Sequence record: PZ445450.1 | DNA length: 64,000 nt | DNA from: a phage | Direction: 5' to 3' (one strand) | Shown here: positions 21,341-62,897 of the stretch, piece after piece | Position numbering within the stretch: position 1 is the first letter of the stretch | Layout: each line of letters starts with the position of its first letter | Notes under the pieces: model-generated | Told to the model about the DNA's origin: nothing | The model's input: the letters and a program-made list of their open reading frames with translations, nothing else | Database searches by the model: none | Translations under genes and position numbers: made by a program

Positions 21341-21760
21341 ATGAACATTAAATCTGATAATCCGGCATATAGCTTTGATAACGCTTTTTGTCACGGTCCG
21401 GCGGCGAAAGGATTCGAAATCGATGGTAAACTAATTATTGTCAATGTTGACGGGGAAGAGGTTGCAGTATATCCGGTGGCAGACGTTAAAAGCCGTCTAC
21501 AATGCCGCATAGATGTTACCGCCTATCAGCTTGATCCGGTCCGGGTAGTTGCCCTGGTCCTGGAAGAAGAAATTAAAGCAATGCACCACAGCAACAAGTT
21601 TATTGGTGACGCTCAAGATAATATGCAGGTATGCCGCTATAAAGTTAATGAAGTGCTTAAAGAGTACGGCTATAAGGATTTAATGATCAAGCGCGATGAA
21701 AAATTCCGCTACCGTAACAACCTGGCAAATCGGATTTTTGAAATATACGAATCATTATAA
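21341..21760 (+). CDS. hypothetical protein
   Basis: aagaggtaaaaac RBS; last gene of plus-strand block. Confidence 0.55.
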   Translation: MNIKSDNPAYSFDNAFCHGPAAKGFEIDGKLIIVNVDGEEVAVYPVADVKSRLQCRIDVTAYQLDPVRVVALVLEEEIKAMHHSNKFIGDAQDNMQVCRYKVNEVLKEYGYKDLMIKRDEKFRYRNNLANRIFEIYESL

Positions 21761-21806: not shown

Positions 21807-22421
21807 TCTGCTCTTCTCCTACCATAAACGGCCCTACCTGGCAAGTGGAATAATTGACTAGCCATCAATCCCACATACTGTACAAATATACATGGAAAAT
21901 AACTATTGCATAATCTTTCATTGTGCGGTAGCAGGGCCATTTTTACCCGTTTTCTCTCCCAAAAGTGCACGTAATGCCGCTATTGCACAAATTTTAACCT
22001 GATGCACATATCCAATATCTTGTCAACAACTAAAAATCTTTATAAGTCATACACTTATACAGCATCGAAAGCGTGTTCTACGTGAAAAATCGAGTATAAC
22101 TATAGCCGCCAGATCTCAGAATTCACGTACGCACGCCATTCTATAGCCTGCAAAGTATTTATTCCAACCACAGAATAACGGAATAGTCAATACCTGCATA
22201 AAATAATTATTCGTGTAAACTGCATAACATAAATCAGCTCAGGTGTCAACATTTTTCGTAAACAGTCCGAAATTATCACGATGAGTTATCATAAACAGAG
22301 AAATCTTTAGTCGTCTAATGTTTACTGTACATTACTATACTGACTGGAATCATTAGATGACTAAGAAAAAGATAAGAAATAATTAATAATGTAATTGTTT
22401 TATCTGTAACAATAAGGCAAC

Positions 22422-22700
22422 CATGCAAACGAATGTCATGGCGCGACGGAGTCGCGACATAATATAAAAGCAGTAACCATCACCCCCGTGATAGTTTGTC
22501 TGCAATCTATTATTCAGATCATAGTTGCCTTGTATTTAGTTAATCATGACATAACAAGCAAGGCAACTATAGCTCTGATAATAGTTGCCCTGCTTTTATA
22601 TTATGTCATAGATTGTTAGCTTGTTAACTGTCAGCCTGTTGGCTGTTAGCTTGTCAATTATTAAATTGCTAATCTTTATCATGCAAACGAATGTCATGGC
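22422..22700. repeat. Composite repeat locus: 21-bp direct repeats flanking nested inverted repeats
   Basis: catgcaaacgaatgtcatggc at 22422-22442 and 22680-22700; 18-bp inverted repeat gacataatataaaagcag (22456-22473) / ctgcttttatattatgtc (22580-22597); inner palindromes cgcgac/gtcgcg and atagttgccttg/caaggcaactat. Confidence 0.8.
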
Positions 22701-22711
22701 TTATCATCTCT

Positions 22712-22767
22712 GTGTAAACAGTTTGGGCGTAAACTATTCAGGCGTAAACAGTCTATGCGTAAACAGT
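22712..22767. repeat. Four tandem iterons with 15-bp period (G[CT]GTAAAC[AT][AG]T)
   Basis: gtgtaaacagt, gcgtaaactat, gcgtaaacagt, gcgtaaacagt at 15-bp spacing; tgttagcttgt/tgtcagcctgt repeats sit just upstream and tgtgtc repeats downstream. Confidence 0.8.
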
Positions 22768-23141
22768 GAGATATGGAATAGTAACAGCCGTTATTGTGTC
22801 ATATTGTGTGACATTGTGTCCGGTGTCTGGTGTCCAGTGTGTCAGACAAGTTTTTCTCCTCTTTGTCAAGTGCTGCATGAAAAATTTACAAACTGGTATG
22901 GTAGCATTTTTGCGGCCCTGTTTACATTCAGTTGTGTATGTATAACCCTTGTTGTGTGGGCGTTTAGACGTCTAGACGGTTGGAAGTCTGCAGGTCAATA
23001 TCTAATCTATCGGCTGCTAACTATATCCCACACAAATAGTAAGAAATATAATTGTTATGTGCGTAAACAGTAACTCATGTTATCAATCCCTGTATGTATC
23101 GCCAGTGGTGCGCATAATGGGTATTATGTTAAATTGCCCGT

Positions 23142-23178
23142 AATGATAATGGTTCTCACAATGATAGGTATTCTCATT
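23142..23178. promoter_or_regulatory. Fur-box-like palindromic motifs
   Basis: aatgataatggttctcacaatgataggtattctcatt; same motif family as 10773 and 10903. Confidence 0.35.
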
Positions 23179-23420
23179 CATCCACACAAAATAGGTTGCA
23201 AATGTTGTGCCACTGTGTGAACGGCCTGGCCTATTAATTTCCCTCACTGCCTCGATATTTGAGAATTGTTATAAGAATGAGAAGTATTCCCATTTCGTCC
23301 GCCTGGCAGCACTCCTGTAGTCCTACAAGGACTCTAGCTGAAAGCTAGACCCTTCGGGCCTCCCTGCAGGTCAGGTCAAAATCGTGGTAGAATTGGGCTT
23401 ATTCAGATATTTCTGGCCGA

Positions 23421-23961
23421 CTCTTCAGGTCTGTGTGGGAAAAGCCAACCTCTCCGGCGGGGCAGGGGGAGGTCAATTAAAAAATTTACGTGGTGTATGA
23501 AGCGCTCTTCAGGTAAGGCAGGTATTATGGGATGAAACCCTCTTCAGGCAATGATATTTGTGGGTGTGATATTTGCTGGAAAGCCAGATATGACGGGACT
23601 CCCGGCGGGGATGGGGCAGTACAGACAGGGAAAATATGGGGATGTAGTTGGGTAAATTGATCAGACAGGTAGAGTATGGAATATGTTACAAGTATGTTAA
23701 ATATGGAGGGTGAATATCTGTAGGATTTGTGTGTAAAATCAAAGACTTAAGCGGTGTTGTGGTATTTTCTATAAATAATTCAAGTTTAATAGGTAATATT
23801 TGTCTCTATCCACTCTGTGTGGTAAACAGATTCAGATGATATTGGTTTGCAAGTGTATACATAATATACAAATTAAAGATACAAGAAACCCCCCTCCCCC
23901 TTCGGCTACCATTCACCTTTTCCTCTGACTGGTACTTAAACACTTATTCAGACTCTTCAGG
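23421..23961. repeat. Dispersed direct repeats of CTCTTCAGG with degenerate ~110-bp units
   Basis: CTCTTCAGG at 23421, 23505, 23540 and 23953; ctccggcggggcaggggg and ctcccggcggggatgggg recur; no supported ORF. Confidence 0.7.
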
Positions 23962-24311
23962 TTATCACCCATATATCATATGGCAGTGACTGGTGTCCTC
24001 CGGCCCCTCTTTCGTCACCCGTCCGCTTCGCCATGCTAATGCCATAGCCAAATGTTCGGTTGTTCACCCTGTTCACTCAGGTGTATCTCCATACCCCTTC
24101 AAACCGAAGAGAACAGAAAACCCGAATTACTCGGTAAAAGAAAAGAGAAGAACTTAATTTTATCATGATAGGCAAGAATGTCAAGGCATGACTGCTCACT
24201 AAACAAGCAAACAGTCATGTGTGGAAGGTAAGTGATTGTGGTGGTAGGAAATTTAGTTGAAAGATGTGTTATAGGTGCTCCCAGCACTTTAGCCGGGTAG
24301 CTAATTGTGTG

Positions 24312-24527
24312 TCAGTCCAGTGGTTCATCACCTACTTCACTGAAATCAATGTTCATGGTCTCCTCCCAACCATCAATCTCAGCACCAGAGTAGAGATCTT
24401 TAGGACTTACTCCCAAAGCCTCAGCAACAGAGTCTATATTTAACACCTCTGGCAGGTATGATTCATCGAATTCAAGGTAAATCAGGCCACGAGTGTTGTC
24501 AGCTCCACCAAATATTTCTATCTTCAT
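24312..24527 (-). CDS. hypothetical acidic protein
   Basis: cagaggagat RBS before internal ATG of track ORF 24312..24593; last gene of minus-strand block. Confidence 0.5.
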   Translation of the reverse strand: MKIEIFGGADNTRGLIYLEFDESYLPEVLNIDSVAEALGVSPKDLYSGAEIDGWEETMNIDFSEVGDEPLD

Positions 24528-26648: not shown

Positions 26649-26912
26649 TCATTTATCCTTGCCGTCAAGAACTTTTTTAAATCTTTCAGGGATATCTCCT
26701 GTTCTTAGATAGTTCATGACCTCGCAAGGTTCCCACTTGAATTTCTTACAGAGCAGGACGGCTGAGATTGTTTCATTGCGAAAAGAAAGGATATTAATAT
26801 CCCACTCTGAGAACCCCAACTTCCGAAGGGTAGCTATAGAAATCCTCACCGCAACCCAGCAGCAAAAACATGCAACAAACGCCACTGCTACAACCCACAT
26901 CAGGATGTTCAT
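26649..26912 (-). CDS. hypothetical membrane protein
   Basis: N-terminal helix ILMWVVAVAFVACFCCWVAV. Confidence 0.45.
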   Translation of the reverse strand: MNILMWVVAVAFVACFCCWVAVRISIATLRKLGFSEWDINILSFRNETISAVLLCKKFKWEPCEVMNYLRTGDIPERFKKVLDGKDK

Positions 26913-27001: not shown

Positions 27002-27289
27002 TCATAGTGCCTCTAAGATTTCATATCCATCTGGTCGGAATACAAGCCACTCCGTGGCTCCGTTTGGTCGATACGCTTTATACAGAACAACCTGATCTCG
27101 GCACATGCACATAGCTACATAGTTTTCATCCACACCTGCAGCCTGCATTGCAGCTTCTTCTCCGGCAACTGCTTTGCTTACAACCTCCTTGGTAGGCAGG
27201 TGTGCGATCAGTTCGTCACCATCATTAACTCCAAAATGGCTGAGCTCCCCATTGGTATCTTTAATCTTAATCTTAACCAGATCTTTCAT
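27002..27289 (-). CDS. small acidic protein, possible member of the MK(I/V)K...EVVEE family
   Basis: Starts MKDLVKIKIK; acidic; contiguous with family members. Confidence 0.45.
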   Translation of the reverse strand: MKDLVKIKIKDTNGELSHFGVNDGDELIAHLPTKEVVSKAVAGEEAAMQAAGVDENYVAMCMCRDQVVLYKAYRPNGATEWLVFRPDGYEILEAL

Positions 27290-27618
27290 TAGTCTTCCTC
27301 CAGGTTCAAAGGCCCTAAGATTTCATATGCCAGATTAGAAGTTACCAGAGGGTCTTCTGCATCTTTAGTATTATACCACCCGTGAATAACCAGAGTCCCA
27401 CTCTGTTTCATATCCAACTGGAACTGTTCTGCAGTTTCCTCCTCCATCTCTAAGATTTCCATAAGGTATTTGATGTTAGGAAGGTATGCAGCTGTTACAG
27501 TCCCCTCTACCAGACCTTCAGGCCAACCTACATCTGGATGACAAGTAGGAACCAGGTTGGTCAGCTTAATGGTGTACGCTTTTTCTGCACGAGCCTTCAG
27601 TAACGGGTCAATCTTCAT
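27289..27618 (-). CDS. hypothetical acidic protein
   Basis: 109-aa ORF; starts 1 nt after the upstream stop. Confidence 0.5.
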   Translation of the reverse strand: MKIDPLLKARAEKAYTIKLTNLVPTCHPDVGWPEGLVEGTVTAAYLPNIKYLMEILEMEEETAEQFQLDMKQSGTLVIHGWYNTKDAEDPLVTSNLAYEILGPLNLEED

Positions 27619-27968
27619 TATTCGTCCTCCTCTTCGGTGCCTGCTTCCAGTAATAAGTTAAGAATATCTTCTGCACAAGGCTCATAGAACTCTTGGCCTT
27701 CATTATCGATGATTTTGTAGTCATCTCCACGAATAATCAGGGGATCACTCTCAAAATTATCGAGACCTTTAACAACGACAACACGATCGATTGCCATCAT
27801 TGTAAGAACTTTATCGACATCTTCCTCTGCTACACCATACTGCAGCAGAATGTCCTTGGTAGGAGGAACAGCATCCACCACAACACCGTTACCAAAACCT
27901 TCCGGCAAGTTAGCTAAAATATCTTCCGGAACCACATTAGTATCAAAACCGGTAATTTCTACTTTCAT
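27618..27968 (-). CDS. small acidic protein, family member
   Basis: Starts MKVEITG; acidic C-terminus EAGTEEEDE. Confidence 0.5.
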   Translation of the reverse strand: MKVEITGFDTNVVPEDILANLPEGFGNGVVVDAVPPTKDILLQYGVAEEDVDKVLTMMAIDRVVVVKGLDNFESDPLIIRGDDYKIIDNEGQEFYEPCAEDILNLLLEAGTEEEDE

Positions 27969-28229
27969 TTACAGCACCTCTTCGTCAACTACTTCATAAA
28001 AATGGCCTGGGATTGCAATAGCGTTCTCACCTTCACCTACAAACACAGTTCCATCAAGAATCAACATCATAAGAATTTCTGTAATATCCTCTTCCGGAAC
28101 GTTGCCAAAACCTTTAATCAGCTCGTAGGTTGGGAGATTTACCTCTAAGATGTCACCATCTTTAGAACGGAAATCAACACCGTCCTGAATCTCTGCCGTT
28201 TCAAGGTTTTTCAATTTAATCTTCATCAA
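27969..28229 (-). CDS. small acidic protein, family member
   Basis: MMKIKLKNLE ... FYEVVDEEVL. Confidence 0.55.
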   Translation of the reverse strand: MMKIKLKNLETAEIQDGVDFRSKDGDILEVNLPTYELIKGFGNVPEEDITEILMMLILDGTVFVGEGENAIAIPGHFYEVVDEEVL

Positions 28230-28305
28230 TCAGTCTCCTGTCTTGTTAAGATGAAGGTATTATTTCACACAGGGTTGGCGTTGTCAACACCTGTGTGCAA
28301 GAAAA

Positions 28306-28701
28306 TTACTGAAACAGTGTGAATAAATTACCTTCCGGTGGGAACTTATCTGCCAAAAACGGTGTTAGCACAGTAGCCTTCTGAAGATCTGGGGTCCACT
28401 CGTTGTTCAGAACATCCCAATAGTACGCAATGTTGCTGTGTGGGTGCCGCATTACGAACTTTTTCCCTTCGTAGTCAGTTGAAACCTCTACAGAAGAAAT
28501 AACAACAGAATCTTCAAGAGTTTCTTCATAGAAAGATCCGCCCTCGAATTTCCAACGAGATGCAAGAGCTCCTGCCTTAAACGCTGCAGATAACGGACTG
28601 TCTGCAAGAACATACATTTCTTGCACTCTGTCACTGCGATCTTTGCTTCTTACGTTGTATACAGTGTCTGAGCTATACTCAACACGGTATAGACTTACCA
28701 T
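28306..28701 (-). CDS. hypothetical protein
   Basis: 131-aa ORF. Confidence 0.5.
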   Translation of the reverse strand: MVSLYRVEYSSDTVYNVRSKDRSDRVQEMYVLADSPLSAAFKAGALASRWKFEGGSFYEETLEDSVVISSVEVSTDYEGKKFVMRHPHSNIAYYWDVLNNEWTPDLQKATVLTPFLADKFPPEGNLFTLFQ

Positions 28702-29033
28702 TACCGAACCTCCTCAATAACTTCCACATCTGAACCTACTATAAATGCAAAAGGACAGGTTTCAGGAAAGACATCCGGATCGCCGCCAAGCTTGCTAACA
28801 ATTTCTCCACCACTAATAAACACAAGCTCACCGATATTCATCAGGTTGCTGAAATAGTACCCATAATGATTAAAGAATGCAGCAGGGTCAGGTAGACTAG
28901 TGGCCTCAAGCTCTACATCGGTTGAGGTTACTTTCTTATCATAACCTCTCGCCTTTTGAGATGCAAGATCTGCAGAATCCTCAGGCGACCGGAGATGCAC
29001 AGGAATTGTTTCACCAATAAAACGTACTTTCAT
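28701..29033 (-). CDS. small acidic protein, family member
   Basis: Internal ATG (MKVRFIG) chosen; track start is TTG inside the upstream gene; ends DVEVIEEVR. Confidence 0.45.
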   Translation of the reverse strand: MKVRFIGETIPVHLRSPEDSADLASQKARGYDKKVTSTDVELEATSLPDPAAFFNHYGYYFSNLMNIGELVFISGGEIVSKLGGDPDVFPETCPFAFIVGSDVEVIEEVR

Positions 29034-29037
29034 ATTA

Positions 29038-29301
29038 TCACCCAACAACCATAGCTTCAAAAGGAGTCATGAACGAATAAACGGCATCATCATCTGCTTC
29101 AGGGAATGCTCCCAATGACTTCAGGTCTAAGCCCTTGACAAATACAAGGTTTTGATCAAAAGCTTCTTGCGGATCAATCCGATACATATCCCGTAGGATA
29201 TCGCTTACCTCCTCATCAAGAGGTGAGTATGCTGTGCACGTTTTTCCGATCAAGCTTTGAGAATCAGGGTATCCACCTGAAGTTTTAAAATAAACAATCA
29301 T
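29038..29301 (-). CDS. small acidic protein, family member
   Basis: LVFVKGLDLKSLGAFPE core shared with paralogues. Confidence 0.5.
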   Translation of the reverse strand: MIVYFKTSGGYPDSQSLIGKTCTAYSPLDEEVSDILRDMYRIDPQEAFDQNLVFVKGLDLKSLGAFPEADDDAVYSFMTPFEAMVVG

Positions 29302-29394
29302 ATAGTATCACCTCTGGCAAGAATGGGGATTCCTTTCCCACAAGTAATTACAAACTTTTCTTCTTATTGAGGCAGTATGCTAATCCAAGCAGGA

Positions 29395-29664
29395 TTATTC
29401 CTCTACAACCTCATACACATCAGGAGTTACAATCAACTCTTCTCCGTTACCCGGTGCAACAAACACCACCAAACCTTCAGGTGTGTGCTTTTTAGCCATC
29501 TCGATAACATCTTCTCGCAGAGCTGGCTCCATCAGATCAAAACCTTCACCCAGGGCATCACGAACCACCTTCATGTAGTCTACTGGTTGTGCTTCAACGA
29601 TCATGCCTTCAACCAGTCCACAGTTTTTGTCTGCCAGCTCAGTTTTGAATAATTTAATTTTCAT
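29395..29664 (-). CDS. small acidic protein, family member
   Basis: MKIKLFKTEL ... DVYEVVEE. Confidence 0.55.
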   Translation of the reverse strand: MKIKLFKTELADKNCGLVEGMIVEAQPVDYMKVVRDALGEGFDLMEPALREDVIEMAKKHTPEGLVVFVAPGNGEELIVTPDVYEVVEE

Positions 29665-29801
29665 TTAGAGGTCTCCTCAATTATTTGATATTAATAGCCG
29701 TAACCTAACACATTAACTACAACTGCGATTGCAAACATAATTTCAAAGCATGCAATCTCTACATTTGGGACTAGTTTCTTAATCACGCCCATTGTAGCAC
29801 C

Positions 29802-30119
29802 TCATTCTCCAAAGTCAATCTTTACTTTGCCTTTCCCCTTACCTTTCTTTCCACCACATTTAGCCAACTGACGTGCTGCAACATCTACCATACGGTCAGT
29901 TGCCTCGTAAGCATCACTGCCTTTAGCTTTGGCAATAACTTCTTTTCCGGAAGTGTCAAAAATGAACGCCATAACTTCCTGGTGATCATTTTCAACTTTT
30001 ACACTCACACGTGCATAGTTGGCAGAGGGGTGCAAACGCTCCAGCTTAGACATTTTGTGGGAAATGAAAGACACCATACCTTCAGTGATTTCTACGTTGC
30101 CAGTGATTTCAATTTGCAT
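29802..30119 (-). CDS. hpf: ribosome hibernation promoting factor / RaiA (YfiA) family homologue
   Basis: MQIEITGNVEITEGM...KLE...VKVE...AKAKGSDAYEATDRMVDVAARQLAK parallels E. coli HPF MQLNITGNNVEITEAL...KLE...LKVE...ASAEGQDMYAAIDGLIDKLARQLTK; Lys/Gly-rich tail. Confidence 0.75.
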   Translation of the reverse strand: MQIEITGNVEITEGMVSFISHKMSKLERLHPSANYARVSVKVENDHQEVMAFIFDTSGKEVIAKAKGSDAYEATDRMVDVAARQLAKCGGKKGKGKGKVKIDFGE

Positions 30120-30201
30120 AACGTGTTCCTTTTAAAGAAGAGGGAACCAAACCCTCTTTGAAAACAATGATACTAAATCTGAAGCGTTGTGTCAACAGTT
30201 T

Positions 30202-30492
30202 TTACAGCTTGTTGTCGATAGTTTTTAAAATATCTACAGCAAGATCTGCCATTTTTCGAACATACTCTGCAAACTCAACAGGATCCTTGATCAAAGAATT
30301 CACAGGGTCGTACCCTAGAGCGTTCAAAATGGCTGCAGCATCTACAACCTTCTCATCATTTGCGAAGATCTCTCCGTCAAACTTGTAGGTCCATTTTGAG
30401 TCAACCTTAGCAGAGCAGGGTTTGTCCATGCTTGTTACACCATCGTCTTTAAACTCTCCTGCGTTATCCATATTCAGAACTAAATCCATCAT
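30202..30492 (-). CDS. hypothetical acidic protein
   Basis: 96-aa ORF. Confidence 0.5.
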   Translation of the reverse strand: MMDLVLNMDNAGEFKDDGVTSMDKPCSAKVDSKWTYKFDGEIFANDEKVVDAAAILNALGYDPVNSLIKDPVEFAEYVRKMADLAVDILKTIDNKL

Positions 30493-30509
30493 AGTGGCAC
30501 CTCACTGTT

Positions 30510-30986
30510 TCAGTTTAGCTTTTCTTCAACAACCCCATAGCTTGGGACAGAGTCAAGAGCTTTCTGGTTTAAAAGTGGTGTAGCAGGATCTGCAATGACA
30601 TCCCAAGTCTCATACAGACCGCACTCATGATACCCCCAACGCTGCTCAATTGTCAAGCTGAGTGGCAAATCTTTACCGTCACAAACAACCTTCCATCTAC
30701 AAATGCTGGTATCTGGGCGTATCTGTGCACGGTATATCTGTACAAAATCCAATTTGAATTTGAGGTACTCGTCATACAATTTAAGCACAAAGCTCTCGAT
30801 TTGTGGAGACACTTTTGCAGCAAACTGTGCGTATTTGTACTTGCACTGGATGATCTTTCTGCGTTTTGCAGTTAAATTTTTTGCCGCCAGTTGTTCTTCA
30901 GTGTATCTCCACCTACGATCAACAAACGCAACAGGGTCTTTGTCCCCATAGAGGTCTTCCCAGTTAATCAGAAGCATACCTGTCAC
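30510..30986 (-). CDS. hypothetical protein
   Basis: 158-aa ORF. Confidence 0.5.
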   Translation of the reverse strand: MTGMLLINWEDLYGDKDPVAFVDRRWRYTEEQLAAKNLTAKRRKIIQCKYKYAQFAAKVSPQIESFVLKLYDEYLKFKLDFVQIYRAQIRPDTSICRWKVVCDGKDLPLSLTIEQRWGYHECGLYETWDVIADPATPLLNQKALDSVPSYGVVEEKLN

Positions 30987-31216
30987 TCCTCCACAACTTC
31001 AAGGCCTTTACCGCCTCGCTCTGGCAGATTACTTAAAGATAGGTAATACATATAATCAGGAGAGATCCTGCCAGACTCTGCACCTGCAGCTAGTAAATCC
31101 TTCCCTTTAACCAGGACAACATTCTCGTTTGCAGATAGCCGTTTTGCTTCCACAATTTTACCAACACAGTCAACCAAGGAAGGGTACCCTAAATCTGTAA
31201 GAAATTTAACTTTCAT
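30983..31216 (-). CDS. small acidic protein, family member
   Basis: MKVKFLTDLGYPSLVD ... GLEVVEE. Confidence 0.55.
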   Translation of the reverse strand: MKVKFLTDLGYPSLVDCVGKIVEAKRLSANENVVLVKGKDLLAAGAESGRISPDYMYYLSLSNLPERGGKGLEVVEE

Positions 31217-31929: not shown

Positions 31930-32244
31930 CTACCAGGTTACTGTCAAGTAGGCAACCGTATTATTTTTCTCTGGGGAGATGCCAACAACATCTACCTGCA
32001 GACCTCCTGCCCTTAAATCTCCAACAATGTGCGGGAAGTAATCTGAGAGATGCGAGGGTAGATTTATCGAAAATCCGCACCCCAGAAAGCCTGCTAACGC
32101 TTTATTTTGTATCTCTCCTACAATCGCATCATAAATGGAGTTAAGCTCGTCAGGAAGCGTTACAGGACGTTTTAGCGCTAACTGGTGTAATTTGTCCTTA
32201 GCACTCATTTTCATTTCAGGTCTACCTCTGGGGGTGCCAACCAC
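31930..32244 (-). CDS. hypothetical protein
   Basis: 104-aa ORF. Confidence 0.45.
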   Translation of the reverse strand: MVGTPRGRPEMKMSAKDKLHQLALKRPVTLPDELNSIYDAIVGEIQNKALAGFLGCGFSINLPSHLSDYFPHIVGDLRAGGLQVDVVGISPEKNNTVAYLTVTW

Positions 32245-32744
32245 ATAAACGGCGGCAAGTCTAAACGGTTTTTCTTATCCCACACAAAATATGCATATGC
32301 TTGCCCGTCAGTTCTGCCGTTTGATTGAAATGATGGACGCTTAGATATTGTGATCACAGTAGTAGGTGCATTATCAAGCCACCATTCAAATCTGGCTTTG
32401 CTTTCCAGAAAATTAAGACGCAAAAGCATAATAACTACGTCAGCATCTTTCAACGCCTTGTCTACAAACTCACGAGCCAGGCTGTATGGTGGGTTGGTGA
32501 TAATACAGTCAACATGGTTGTATTCTGTATTCAGATAGTCAACACCTTCTTGGATTTCTCCCCATGCAGATCCTAACGGCATACGGGAGTAGAACACACC
32601 TGAGGCACTATTCCTGCAAGGCTCTAAGTAGGTCCAGTCTTCTGGGAACGGAATAAGGTCATACAGCCCTTCTGCACACCACTCCGGTGTCACATACTCA
32701 TCGTAGGCGTTACGTTGTTCATCAGGTTTTCGAGCACAAGTCAT
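32211..32744 (-). CDS. DNA methyltransferase (amino-methyltransferase, NPPY motif)
   Basis: VDCIITNPPYSLAREF catalytic motif; Dam-like size. Confidence 0.7.
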   Translation of the reverse strand: MTCARKPDEQRNAYDEYVTPEWCAEGLYDLIPFPEDWTYLEPCRNSASGVFYSRMPLGSAWGEIQEGVDYLNTEYNHVDCIITNPPYSLAREFVDKALKDADVVIMLLRLNFLESKARFEWWLDNAPTTVITISKRPSFQSNGRTDGQAYAYFVWDKKNRLDLPPFMWLAPPEVDLK

Positions 32745-32795: not shown

Positions 32796-33845
32796 TTAAG
32801 CTTCTTCGATAATTCCTGCACCCAGGATTTTTTCATTGAGCTCTTTTGCTGTTTTAATAATATTGTCCACCAGACGCTTGCGAGTCTTATCTTTTACCTT
32901 AACCTCTTCACCGCCGTTCAGGGTTGTCTTCAATTGGGACAGAATGTCTTGAAGTTCAACGACAGAGAATCGCTGCAGATCTTCTGAGGTAATCTCGCCT
33001 AAGGCAATCTTAACGGTCTCACCACTTTCCATCTGCAGGTTCAGGAACACAGTGTGAACATCACCTTTCGAACCACCCGCTTTTGCAGATTCAACAGCAT
33101 GAACTAGCTCATCTAAAGAGGTGCACTGGTGAATCTCCGGAAGACCTGCTTCACCTAGCACACCTTCTTCATCACCTTTTGCCAAAAGCTTTTTAGGTTT
33201 TTGTCCGTTCTGGATGCGTTGTATGTTGCCTTCATCCAGAATAATAGCTCCAGTACGTGCTGCCAGCTCTTCTCCGTCCAACCACACTTCGCCACCAGCT
33301 GTGATGGATGCGATCTCATCTTCTGTCAGCACTCCACCGTAGTATTTTTCAATCAGGCGTTCAAAACGTTTTTTCCAGTAGCTGACCTGAGTATTCATGT
33401 TCACACCGTTACCATAAGTGCCACCTTGATAGTAGTGGAACATAAATTCTGTGTCCGGAGCCACAGTGCGTTCTTTGCAACCCAGCCATAAGATTGTTCC
33501 CGCAGAGCAGCACATCCCTTCAGCATGTGCAACAACGCTTGCCTGAGACTCGCGGAATGCCTGTAGATAAGCCATTGCAATGTGCACGCAACCCCCAGGG
33601 CTATTGATGATCACCCGAATGCTTTCTTCCGGCTGAGCCATACGGATCGTCTGCAGACGAGACATATGATCCTGCAGGTCTTCCAAATCGTCGATATAAA
33701 GAACGTGGTCAACAACAGGTGTTGGGTAGCTGTATGTTTCCATGATACCGCCCGGCATACCAAACATTTTATTACTCATAGGTTCGAAACCGTTCTGTTT
33801 TTCTTTCATGCCGTGTACCATGGTGCTGCGAGGTGTTAAATTCAT
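32796..33845 (-). CDS. ClpP/S14-like serine peptidase with C-terminal extension
   Basis: INSPGGCVHIAMAYL and GMCCSAGTILWLG resemble the ClpP oxyanion and active-site Ser regions. Confidence 0.6.
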   Translation of the reverse strand: MNLTPRSTMVHGMKEKQNGFEPMSNKMFGMPGGIMETYSYPTPVVDHVLYIDDLEDLQDHMSRLQTIRMAQPEESIRVIINSPGGCVHIAMAYLQAFRESQASVVAHAEGMCCSAGTILWLGCKERTVAPDTEFMFHYYQGGTYGNGVNMNTQVSYWKKRFERLIEKYYGGVLTEDEIASITAGGEVWLDGEELAARTGAIILDEGNIQRIQNGQKPKKLLAKGDEEGVLGEAGLPEIHQCTSLDELVHAVESAKAGGSKGDVHTVFLNLQMESGETVKIALGEITSEDLQRFSVVELQDILSQLKTTLNGGEEVKVKDKTRKRLVDNIIKTAKELNEKILGAGIIEEA

Positions 33846-62085: not shown

Positions 62086-62160
62086 GCCCTGTTAGCTTAG
62101 TGGATAAAGCAGCGGCCTTCTAAGCCGTTGACACTGGTTCGAGTCCAGTACGGGGTGCCA
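62086..62160 (+). tRNA. tRNA-Arg (anticodon UCU)
   Basis: Cloverleaf folded by hand: acceptor gccctgt/acggggt (one G-U), anticodon loop CUUCUAA, T-loop TTCGAGT, CCA encoded. Confidence 0.8.
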
Positions 62161-62164
62161 AATT

Positions 62165-62251
62165 GGGGAGTTATCCCGTAGAGGTAGCGGTGTAGACTGT
62201 AAATCTATTGTCATTGCGACTCGGGTGGTTCGACTCCACCACTCCCCACCA
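62165..62251 (+). tRNA. tRNA-Tyr (anticodon GUA), class II
   Basis: Acceptor ggggagt/actcccc, anticodon loop CUGUAAA, long variable arm, T-loop TTCGACT, CCA encoded. Confidence 0.75.
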
Positions 62252-62365
62252 AATTTATATTTTTAAATGCATAAATCATACAGATAATGACATTGATATT
62301 TATCGTCGTTTATACTAGTCACTAACTGCTCGAAAATCAGTGTCATTATCAGTGTAATTTATAAA

Positions 62366-62456
62366 GGAGGGTAGGGAGCAATGGTGCTCAAGCGGTCTTG
62401 AAAACCGTCCCGTTGAGGATGACTCGATGATGGTTCGATTCCATTACTCTCCGCCA
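62366..62456 (+). tRNA. tRNA-Ser (anticodon UGA), class II
   Basis: Acceptor ggagggt/actctcc, anticodon loop CUUGAAA, long variable arm, T-loop TTCGATT, CCA encoded. Confidence 0.75.
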
Positions 62457-62554
62457 CATTGTTGACCTTGTAATTAAGCGAAAGCCGGAAGCAGAACCGG
62501 ATTATCAAATGTTACAGTCGTCATCGCCGACTAGCCACATGGTCAACATATTGC

Positions 62555-62653
62555 GCTAGGTAAGCCCTTTGGCAAGGGCGAGGATTTTTAATCCTGAAAA
62601 TAGACGAGGTAGTCGTTGAATACATAGGTGGTTCGATTCCATCACCTAGCACC
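62555..62653 (+). tRNA. aberrant tRNA-like gene (candidate Lys-UUU-like anticodon loop; ~30-nt insertion before T-arm)
   Basis: Acceptor gctaggt/acctagc, D-arm gccc-tttggcaa-gggc, T-arm ggtgg-ttcgatt-ccatc. Anticodon region aggatttttaatcct gives UUUUUAA loop only with a 4-bp stem; ~30 nt lie between it and the T-arm; 3' CC only. Confidence 0.45.
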
Positions 62654-62657
62654 TTTT

Positions 62658-62733
62658 GCTGATGTAGCACAATTGGCAGTGCAATTGATTTGTAATCAAT
62701 AGGTTGCAGGTTCAAGTCCTGCCATCAGCACCA
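62658..62733 (+). tRNA. tRNA-Thr (anticodon UGU)
   Basis: Acceptor gctgatg/catcagc, D-stem gcac/gtgc, anticodon loop UUUGUAA, T-loop TTCAAGT, CCA encoded. Confidence 0.8.
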
Positions 62734-62734
62734 T

Positions 62735-62809
62735 GGCCCTGTAGCTGGAAGGTTCAAGCAAGCGACTCATAATCGCCAGACGGTGGTTCAATTCCACCCA
62801 GGGCCACCA
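62735..62809 (+). tRNA. tRNA-Met (anticodon CAU; elongator Met or Ile2 lysidine type)
   Basis: Acceptor ggccctg/cagggcc with G1-C72, anticodon loop CUCAUAA, T-loop TTCAATT, CCA encoded. Confidence 0.7.
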
Positions 62810-62820
62810 AATAATAAATA

Positions 62821-62897
62821 CTCCGCGTAGCTCAGCTTGGTAGAGCGCCTGATTTGGGATCAGGAGGTCGAGTGTTCGAATCACTCCGTGGAGACCA
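62821..62897 (+). tRNA. tRNA-Pro (anticodon UGG)
   Basis: C1-G72 acceptor typical of tRNA-Pro, anticodon loop UUUGGGA, T-loop TTCGAAT, CCA encoded. Confidence 0.8.

Follow-up and report, generated by a model that had tools for sequence, protein, structure and literature searches.

The gene on the minus strand at positions 29802..30119 of PZ445450.1, a phage DNA stretch of 64,000 nucleotides (nt) that is called the window below, encodes a 105-amino acid (aa) protein that is, with near certainty, a homologue of the HPF/YfiA (Ribosomal_S30AE) superfamily of ribosome hibernation factors. The gene, referred to here as hpf, is under strong purifying selection. The best explanation for the evidence taken whole, to which we give about an even chance, is that its product is a modulator of hibernation that binds ribosomes in a salt-labile manner. 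The coding sequence runs from ATG to TGA over 105 codons, exactly the open reading frame (ORF) reported in a preliminary description made from the sequence, which had left its minus strand unstated. It is the orthologue of gp139 / ORF144 (YP_002003641, ABI79209) of phage rV5. Very few cultured phage lineages carry an HPF homologue. Because approximately 117 of the 129 phage records matched by E. coli HPF in a tblastn search of 50,697 such records belong to Vequintavirus, with isolated cases such as the Xanthomonas jumbo phage XaC1 making up the rest, this lineage is the main tractable system. Strong purifying selection is found there, yet the sole functional test was negative, so what the phage gains from a hibernation-factor homologue remains a testable question, with a bearing on how phages handle starved or dormant hosts and on translation-targeted defence.

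The HPF-like protein, its predicted fold and its annotation

The preliminary description had aligned the protein with E. coli HPF by eye, along its length, and had proposed a profile search against the HPF/RaiA family. In that search both family models exceed their curated thresholds: PF02482 (Ribosomal_S30AE), matched over profile positions 1-83 of 88, scores 48.2 bits (E = 1.9e-12) where the gathering cut-off is 23.7 bits, and TIGR00741 (HPF/YfiA family) scores 46.7 bits against 40.9. Pairwise BLASTP with E. coli reference sequences, which were checked against databases, aligned residues 1-87/88 with HPF at 42% identity with two 1-residue gaps (E = 2e-17), and gave 24% identity to RaiA (E = 4e-6). 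A phmmer search of the PDB recovered E. coli HPF chains 2rql, 4v8h and 6h4n at E ~1e-11, and RaiA only at E = 0.17. The narrower equivalog models were not reached, with 55 bits against a cut-off of 125 for NF007780 (PRK10470, gammaproteobacterial short HPF) and 18.7 bits against 158 for NF007654 (PRK10324, RaiA/YfiA). Judged by its sequence, the protein is thus HPF-type rather than RaiA-type, given 42% versus 24% identity and 55 versus 18.7 bits on the NCBIfam models, and is an equivalog of neither host protein.

An AlphaFold2 model built from a 33-sequence alignment (mean predicted local distance difference test score, pLDDT, of 81) places an S30AE/HPF core at residues 1-88 (29856..30119, minus strand). 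Its predicted elements, beta1 (2-7), alpha1 (13-29), beta2 (33-43), beta3 (46-55), beta4 (60-67) and alpha2 (70-88), follow the canonical beta-alpha-beta-beta-beta-alpha topology, with block-mean pLDDT of 85-93 over residues 1-80 and 77 over residues 81-90. When the model was searched against the PDB with Foldseek, the top 36 matches were all HPF/pY/RaiA hibernation factors, with root mean square deviations (rmsd) of 1.0-1.5 Å to V. cholerae and E. coli HPF. The best match was V. cholerae HPF (4hei, rmsd 1.0 Å); ribosome-bound E. coli HPF (6h4n_x) superimposed at 1.1 Å with 42% identity. Profile, pairwise alignment, structure prediction and fold search all fully bear out the homology.

The gammaproteobacterial short HPF (YhbH; NF007780; PDB 2rql, 6h4n, 4hei) shares with the phage protein the fold, the 42% identity and an MQ[IL]xITG N-terminus. 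The long HPFs of Firmicutes and other bacteria (S. aureus, B. subtilis; ca. 180-190 aa) share the N-terminal S30AE domain, but the phage protein lacks their C-terminal dimerisation domain and stops 17 residues after alpha2. Its likeness to rV5 gp139 is that of the same gene (99% identical; locus, promoter and the 33-aa ORF downstream all coincide), with no difference of substance.

The 4 kb flanking hpf match Escherichia phage vB_EcoM_Gotham at 99.8% identity across 65% of their length, and phage MaxBurger at 95.1% identity from end to end. Both phages belong to Vequintavirus, and these nucleotide matches confirm that the DNA is of phage origin; by its sequence, the window is from a Vequintavirus, an rV5-like E. 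coli myovirus. The hpf product occurs at ≥95% identity in 117 Vequintavirus phage records, and a 118th match is a Salmonella chromosome record. The allele in the window is identical in Gotham and phiWec189, and rV5 gp139 differs from it at one residue (T56 vs N56).

The gene is already known: its annotation goes back to the rV5 genome record and recurs in dozens of later ones, and it was published and probed experimentally in 2019. Mathieu et al. 2020 (PMC6969025) again noted that rV5-type phages carry hpf. We found no further functional study of phage HPF in the literature after Mizuno 2019 and Mathieu 2020, and nothing relevant on stationary-phase infection by Vequintavirinae. What is new here comprises the selection figures, the comparison with a sister lineage, the loss of K80 and K89 accompanied by a newly gained basic tail, and corrections to annotations as RaiA, as Lon protease and, on the wrong gene, as 'sigma 54'; beyond such residue-level and selection details, nothing is added to the public record.

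Public records name the product variously 'sigma 54 modulation factor', 'ribosome hibernation (promoting) factor', HPF, 'RaiA' and 'ATP-dependent protease La type I'. Given the 24% identity to RaiA, the low equivalog score (18.7 bits versus 158) and the different tail, 'RaiA' as a RefSeq product name is imprecise. The protease name, used in several records, was rejected, as a Pfam search did not detect such a domain. The 'sigma-54 modulator' name is historical and stems from the location of cellular hpf in the rpoN operon. A literal role as a sigma-54 modulator was rejected, the structure and sequence matches all being to ribosome-bound factors. In APECc02 (L011) it is the adjacent 89-aa gene that bears the name 'sigma 54 modulation factor', and this label has spread thence to other phages; it is misplaced there, since that gene is without an S30AE domain. 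Annotation drift of these kinds was noted in L011 (APECc02), L012 (nomo), L017 (nom) and in records MT884008-11 and OR062528. We also considered the 89-aa neighbour, and the flanking small proteins with MK[IV]E-IT-like N-termini, as HPF paralogues and rejected them, as none has a Pfam match up to E = 10. Eighteen UNVERIFIED GenBank records of 'Campylobacter phage' (MG0656xx, e.g. L015) match E. coli Vequintavirus over this region at 96-99% identity, which makes their Campylobacter host assignment look doubtful.

Descent of the gene and purifying selection

An exhaustive search of 1.84 billion cluster representatives returned one close relative, P0004, at 65% identity; cellular sequences were at most 44% identical, with E-values of 3.7e-7 or weaker. 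A word-indexed protein search with the phage protein gave five close relatives, and a pattern scan of IMG/VR gave two loci. A further candidate relative, P0006 (E = 1.3e-8), is a repeat protein of 1160 aa and was rejected as spurious. Among themselves, enterobacterial HPFs share 77-100% identity, and a length of 95 aa holds for nearly all of those listed. Compared with that range, the 40-42% identity of the phage protein to E. coli HPF marks the gene as an old, diverged acquisition and no recent host copy. Derivation from a gammaproteobacterial short HPF is the best explanation of its origin. The HPF homologues of Cronobacter phage GAP32 and Xanthomonas phage XaC1 are likewise translation-apparatus genes in large virulent phages, but are independent acquisitions: the XaC1 protein shares 34% identity with E. 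coli HPF, and that of GAP32 went undetected by tblastn, whether the query was the phage protein or E. coli HPF.

P0004 is encoded on uncultured contigs of 125-137 kb that are colinear with Vequintavirus, at ca. 73-77% nucleotide identity over ca. 30% of the region. Among the 11 syntenic genes common to both lineages, hpf is the most conserved, at 64% versus 29-58% for its neighbours. This comparison was used because synonymous divergence (dS) from the P0004 lineage is saturated, which leaves the ratio of nonsynonymous to synonymous divergence (dN/dS) undefined. Between the window gene and ten other Vequintavirus alleles, dN/dS by the Nei-Gojobori method is 0.025-0.156, with dS up to 0.83. Thus, hpf is under strong purifying selection.

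Three alleles are interrupted. That of YP-6 (L016) has a nonsense codon at position 4 (GAA to TAA), and those of Murica (L010) and APECc02 (L011) have tail frameshifts in the A/G-rich run GGAAAGAAAGGTAAGGGGAAAGG; real alleles and sequencing errors are indistinguishable here for all three variants. Taken at face value they suggest that the gene or its tail is dispensable for laboratory propagation, and they are what one would expect of a recently captured, functionless copy of host hpf in decay. Yet an identity to E. coli HPF of just 40-42% shows that the capture was not recent, dN/dS of 0.025-0.156 and a conserved promoter of its own speak against decay, and the same locus is kept in a lineage whose flanking genes are 29-58% identical. 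The selection and synteny data effectively refute a decaying passenger, which we regard as exceedingly improbable. Separately, certain alleles (L009/L012) are 106 aa long and regain an E. coli-like GNNVEIT.

Ribosome contacts, the C-terminal tail and candidate roles

Compared with 35 cellular homologues, the phage protein keeps 36 of the 45 positions at which group conservation is 80% or more. K22 is invariant, and G7, T12, E43, G58, A63, D69, Y71, D75, D79, R83 and Q84 are retained; with short HPF it has in common K22, K25, D69, Y71, D75, D79, R83, Q84, K87 and K91. Contact residues are given in E. coli numbering and are taken from a cryo-electron microscopy study (bioRxiv 10.1101/2025.10.07.680626), in which K80, R83, K87, K89 and K91 of alpha2 are strictly conserved contacts to 16S ribosomal RNA (rRNA), T53 and position 62 contact m2G966, and H55 and E60 contact the C-terminus of uS9. 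Three of the five alpha2 contacts (R83, K87 and K91) are kept, as are E60 and a hydrophobic residue at position 62.

The core is followed by the tail GGKKGKGKGKVKIDFGE (residues 89-105; 29805..29855, minus strand), which is predicted to be disordered, with AlphaFold2 pLDDT below 50 at residues 90-95 and 97-105. With six Lys and six Gly in 17 residues, it is the Lys/Gly-rich addition that the preliminary description had recognised. The tail is near-invariant across Vequintavirus alleles, and four of its codons carry synonymous-only changes. The tail of the sister lineage, SKSKGIDKRTAKWDY, has a different sequence but the same length and is also basic, and both tails finish in a similar K-[IW]-D-[FY]. 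The isoelectric point (pI) is 8.7 for the phage protein and 9.4 for that of the sister lineage, versus 6.5 for E. coli HPF. Short HPF differs in having 95 rather than 105 aa and 6-7 rather than 17 residues after alpha2. RaiA/YfiA/protein Y (NF007654, PDB 1n3g, 4v8i) resembles the phage protein in its fold and in a C-terminal extension past alpha2 of comparable reach; however, the RaiA tail has 25 residues and an acidic end (EEVEEE), whereas the phage tail has 17, is Lys/Gly-rich and unrelated in sequence, and carries the opposite net charge at its end.

The rV5 orthologue has been examined on ribosomes. Mizuno et al. 2019 (Nat Commun 10:752, PMC6375957) catalogued rV5 ABI79209 as a viral HPF, placed among gammaproteobacterial sequences in their phylogeny. 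For expression they used pBAD24 in E. coli NM522 with arabinose induction, and cells were harvested at an optical density at 600 nm (OD600) of 1. Ribosomes were pelleted through 500 mM NH4Cl and resolved on 10-50% sucrose gradients, followed by mass spectrometry (PMC6375957). Peptides including the C-terminal VKIDFGE were found in the crude extract, and no HPF peptides in 70S or 100S; the 100S peak was the same with expression (PMC6375957), a result limited by harvest at the end of exponential phase, when 100S particles are scarce. The authors considered the experiment inconclusive, giving growth phase, genuine loss of binding and stripping by salt as possible reasons (PMC6375957). The phage protein thereby differs from cellular short HPF, which turns the 90S dimers induced by RMF into 100S, in that the rV5 protein was not seen on salt-washed ribosomes and had no effect on 100S, and from phage bS21 and bL12, which are also translation-apparatus genes of large virulent phages but are incorporated into ribosomes, unlike rV5 HPF (PMC6375957).

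The sucrose-gradient check that the preliminary description had proposed is therefore already in print for the rV5 orthologue, with a negative outcome after 500 mM NH4Cl. Its suggestion that the phage factor silences or protects 70S ribosomes keeps strong homology behind it, while the function is undemonstrated, an orthologue one aa different being missing from salt-washed 70S and 100S. It had made its idea fall with the joint absence of a profile match and of ribosome association; because the profile match is strong, the idea stands by that rule.

In the explanation that we favour, host RNA polymerase would transcribe hpf from its own near-consensus sigma-70 promoter, within a long array of small phage genes. 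Cellular HPF and RaiA act as plugs in the A/P-site channel of vacant 30S/70S, and the C-terminal tail of RaiA prevents RMF binding and hence 100S formation (PMC7764885); R95/R96 of that tail contact 16S rRNA and uS7 (bioRxiv 10.1101/2025.10.07.680626). Like them, the phage core would dock on vacant host ribosomes, in the tRNA/mRNA channel of their 30S subunit, through its kept basic surface (K22, K25, R83, K87 and K91), and we think it somewhat more likely than not that the protein binds at this canonical site. The contact of the core would be weakened by the replacement of K80, K89, T53 and H55, for which the flexible 17-residue Lys-rich tail, leaving the end of alpha2 where the RaiA tail leaves, may compensate. 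By analogy with the RaiA tail blocking RMF, it might favour protected 70S monomers over 100S dimers of the RMF/HPF type. The net effect would be that the phage, and not the host, decides the parking of idle ribosomes, which would stay intact and quickly reusable. This RaiA-like outcome, protective 70S parking, is advanced tentatively, as an analogy that has somewhat less than an even chance of holding. A salt-labile association with interference against RMF is the most economical account of a weakened core interface combined with an electrostatic tail that would issue from the end of alpha2. Salt-labile binding also reconciles the strong purifying selection with the negative experiment in 500 mM NH4Cl. 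Homology, predicted fold, conservation, purifying selection and promoter-like signals are shown by the analysis, while binding at the canonical site, the course that the tail takes and the outcome for the cell are deduced from them.

Several observations, the interrupted alleles and the possible dispensability described above among them, weigh against this explanation. The equivalog scores lie far under the cut-offs for E. coli-type HPF and RaiA. Two of the five alpha2 lysines are gone in both phage lineages, K80 being replaced by V (T in the sister lineage) and K89 by G (S in the sister lineage). T53 has become F52, H55 has become F54, and the conserved Arg of alpha1 (E. coli R17) has become V16, losses that the sister lineage shares. 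The published gradients held no HPF peptides in the ribosomal fractions, and the 100S peak did not change. Read from the sequence, the replaced contact residues could signify lost ribosome binding rather than a changed mode of binding.

Such a loss would suit a repurposed fold, in which the surface, similar to a double-stranded RNA-binding domain (dsRBD), and the basic tail bind another RNA or protein, for example a transcript of phage or host origin or part of a defence system. The negative ribosome association of the rV5 orthologue and the replacement of several canonical contact residues in both lineages are consistent with it. So are a possibly conserved C-terminal K-[IW]-D-[FY], which would resemble a short linear motif on a flexible linker, and weak Foldseek similarity to dsRBD folds such as Staufen (ranks 41 and 49). 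However, 36 of 45 family-conserved positions are kept, including K22 and R83/Q84/K87, which a new target would not require, and the gene context offers no partner, the neighbours being without Pfam or PADLOC matches. We rate a repurposed fold as unlikely.

Mizuno et al. hypothesised that the viral HPF competes with the cellular protein and thereby prevents dimerisation (PMC6375957). As an anti-hibernation decoy, the phage protein would be a weak competitor of host HPF/RaiA for their common site, and its tail would exclude RMF, such that ribosomes escape locking into hibernating 100S or 70S states and stay free for phage mRNAs during the shutdown of host translation. The loss of K80, K89, T53 and H55 and the failure to find the protein on salt-washed ribosomes, taken together, are in keeping with binding that is weak and reversible; the tail would emerge where the RMF-blocking tail of RaiA emerges; and the hypothesis is explicit in that paper (PMC6375957). 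On the other side, the small 100S fraction showed no discernible change on expression, though 100S was scarce at harvest, there is no direct evidence of competition, and a weak binder would need abundance. We give the decoy a minor but real share of the probability. The same share goes to a re-tooled antagonist in a wider sense, no hibernation factor as the host uses one but a weakly binding HPF mimic. Its Lys-rich tail, with the K-[IW]-D-[FY] end common to two divergent phage lineages, would obstruct RMF, host HPF/RaiA, or both. Were the protein an antagonist, infected cells that are starving or in defence shutdown would be unable to park their ribosomes as 100S; under the alternative, nucleases of defence or decay would be kept off their 16S rRNA and the ribosomes would be instantly reusable.

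A host shut-off factor is the least probable of these ribosome-directed roles, and we think it improbable. An early HPF-like plug of vacant 30S/70S would here depress host initiation, and phage messages would escape by timing or by strong initiation signals. HPF-family proteins do occlude the A and P sites, the promoter is strong and of host type, and the gene sits in a block of small genes of the kind typical of early regions. An HPF plug, however, cannot tell phage from host mRNA, and induced cultures reached an OD600 of 1 and showed normal 70S profiles, evidence against strong toxicity.

Expression signals, neighbouring genes and other regions of the window

Unlike cellular short HPF, the phage gene lies in an array of small genes and has a promoter of its own. 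A sigma-70-type promoter (TTGACA-17 nt-TATCAT; 30167..30195, minus strand), with 11 of 12 consensus matches, corresponds to promoter P144 of rV5 and lies 8 nt past the stop codon of the gene before hpf. The equivalent site is annotated in rV5 and is also predicted by PhagePromoter in Gotham. Its core, AAACTGTTGACAC, is kept in every Vequintavirus allele and in the divergent sister (L005) lineage, and the predicted promoter is presumably active. At or near the 5' end of the predicted transcript is a hairpin with a 7-bp stem (AAGAGGG-TTTGGTT-CCCTCTT; 30138..30158, minus strand), which is present in the minimum free energy fold. Other alleles keep it with altered stems, e.g. AGAGAGA/TCTCTCT in YP-6, and the allele comparison found it absent in the L005 lineage. 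It may be an mRNA-stabilising 5' stem-loop or a weak attenuator. A Shine-Dalgarno sequence, AAGGA (30127..30131, minus strand), was read 7 nt before the ATG of hpf.

An ORF for a hydrophobic 33-aa product, MGVIKKLVPNVEIACFEIMFAIAVVVNVLGYGY (29691..29792, minus strand), starts 9 nt after the hpf stop codon, with GAGG upstream, and is the orthologue of rV5 gp140. All 14 Vequintavirus loci examined carry it almost unchanged, the most divergent allele (dS ~0.8) included, but the L005 lineage lacks it; it has no Pfam or PADLOC match. From its position it is probably co-transcribed with hpf, and its product is likely a small membrane peptide. A second promoter-like site, TTGACT-16-TACAAT with an extended TG (29791-29818, minus strand; 10 of 12 matches), lies within the final hpf codons. 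Its -10 box overlaps the ATG of the 33-aa ORF, and PhagePromoter predicts it in Gotham too. If active, this site would drive the downstream 89-aa gene and not the 33-aa ORF. PADLOC found no defence-system match for hpf or its neighbours.

The array around hpf encodes small acidic proteins (pI 4.1-4.8; 27002-29664 and 29038-31216, minus strand) that are seemingly diverged paralogues of one another. One paralogue-like set comprises 27002-27289, 27289-27618, 27618-27968, 27969-28229 and 29395-29664 (blastp E = 9e-7 to 0.03 in a 20-sequence database), and a further pair comprises 29038-29301 and 30983-31216. None of these acidic array proteins has a Pfam match. Among the 20 genes examined, two encode clearly basic proteins, hpf (pI 8.7) and 26649-26912 (pI 8.9).

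Plus-strand genes (the last ending at 21760) and minus-strand genes (the last ending at 24312) converge on 21970-24312, ca. 2.3 kb without a credible ORF and with the lowest GC content of the window (0.394). This stretch contains three units of GTAAAC-N9-GCGTAAAC spaced at 15 nt (22714-22764). It also has two perfect repeats, one direct of 21 nt (22422, 22680) and one inverted of 18 nt (22456-22473 / 22590-22607). Its rV5 counterpart, of 2.6 kb (104013-106618), is likewise unannotated. The stretch could be an origin-like or non-coding RNA region.

By eye, the 177-aa product of 32211-32744 (minus strand) carries IITNPPY, a motif often seen as typical for N6-adenine/N4-cytosine DNA methyltransferases, and the 349-aa product of 32796-33845 (minus strand) resembles a ClpP/SppA-type prohead protease region. 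A cluster of transfer RNA (tRNA) genes at 62086-62897 (plus strand) comprises Arg-TCT, Tyr-GTA, Ser-TGA, Thr-TGT, Met-CAT and Pro-TGG. At 62555-62653 there is an odd tRNA-like element of 99 nt, to which ARAGORN assigns a 4-base anticodon (atcc) and which scores 35.5 bits with the Rfam tRNA model.

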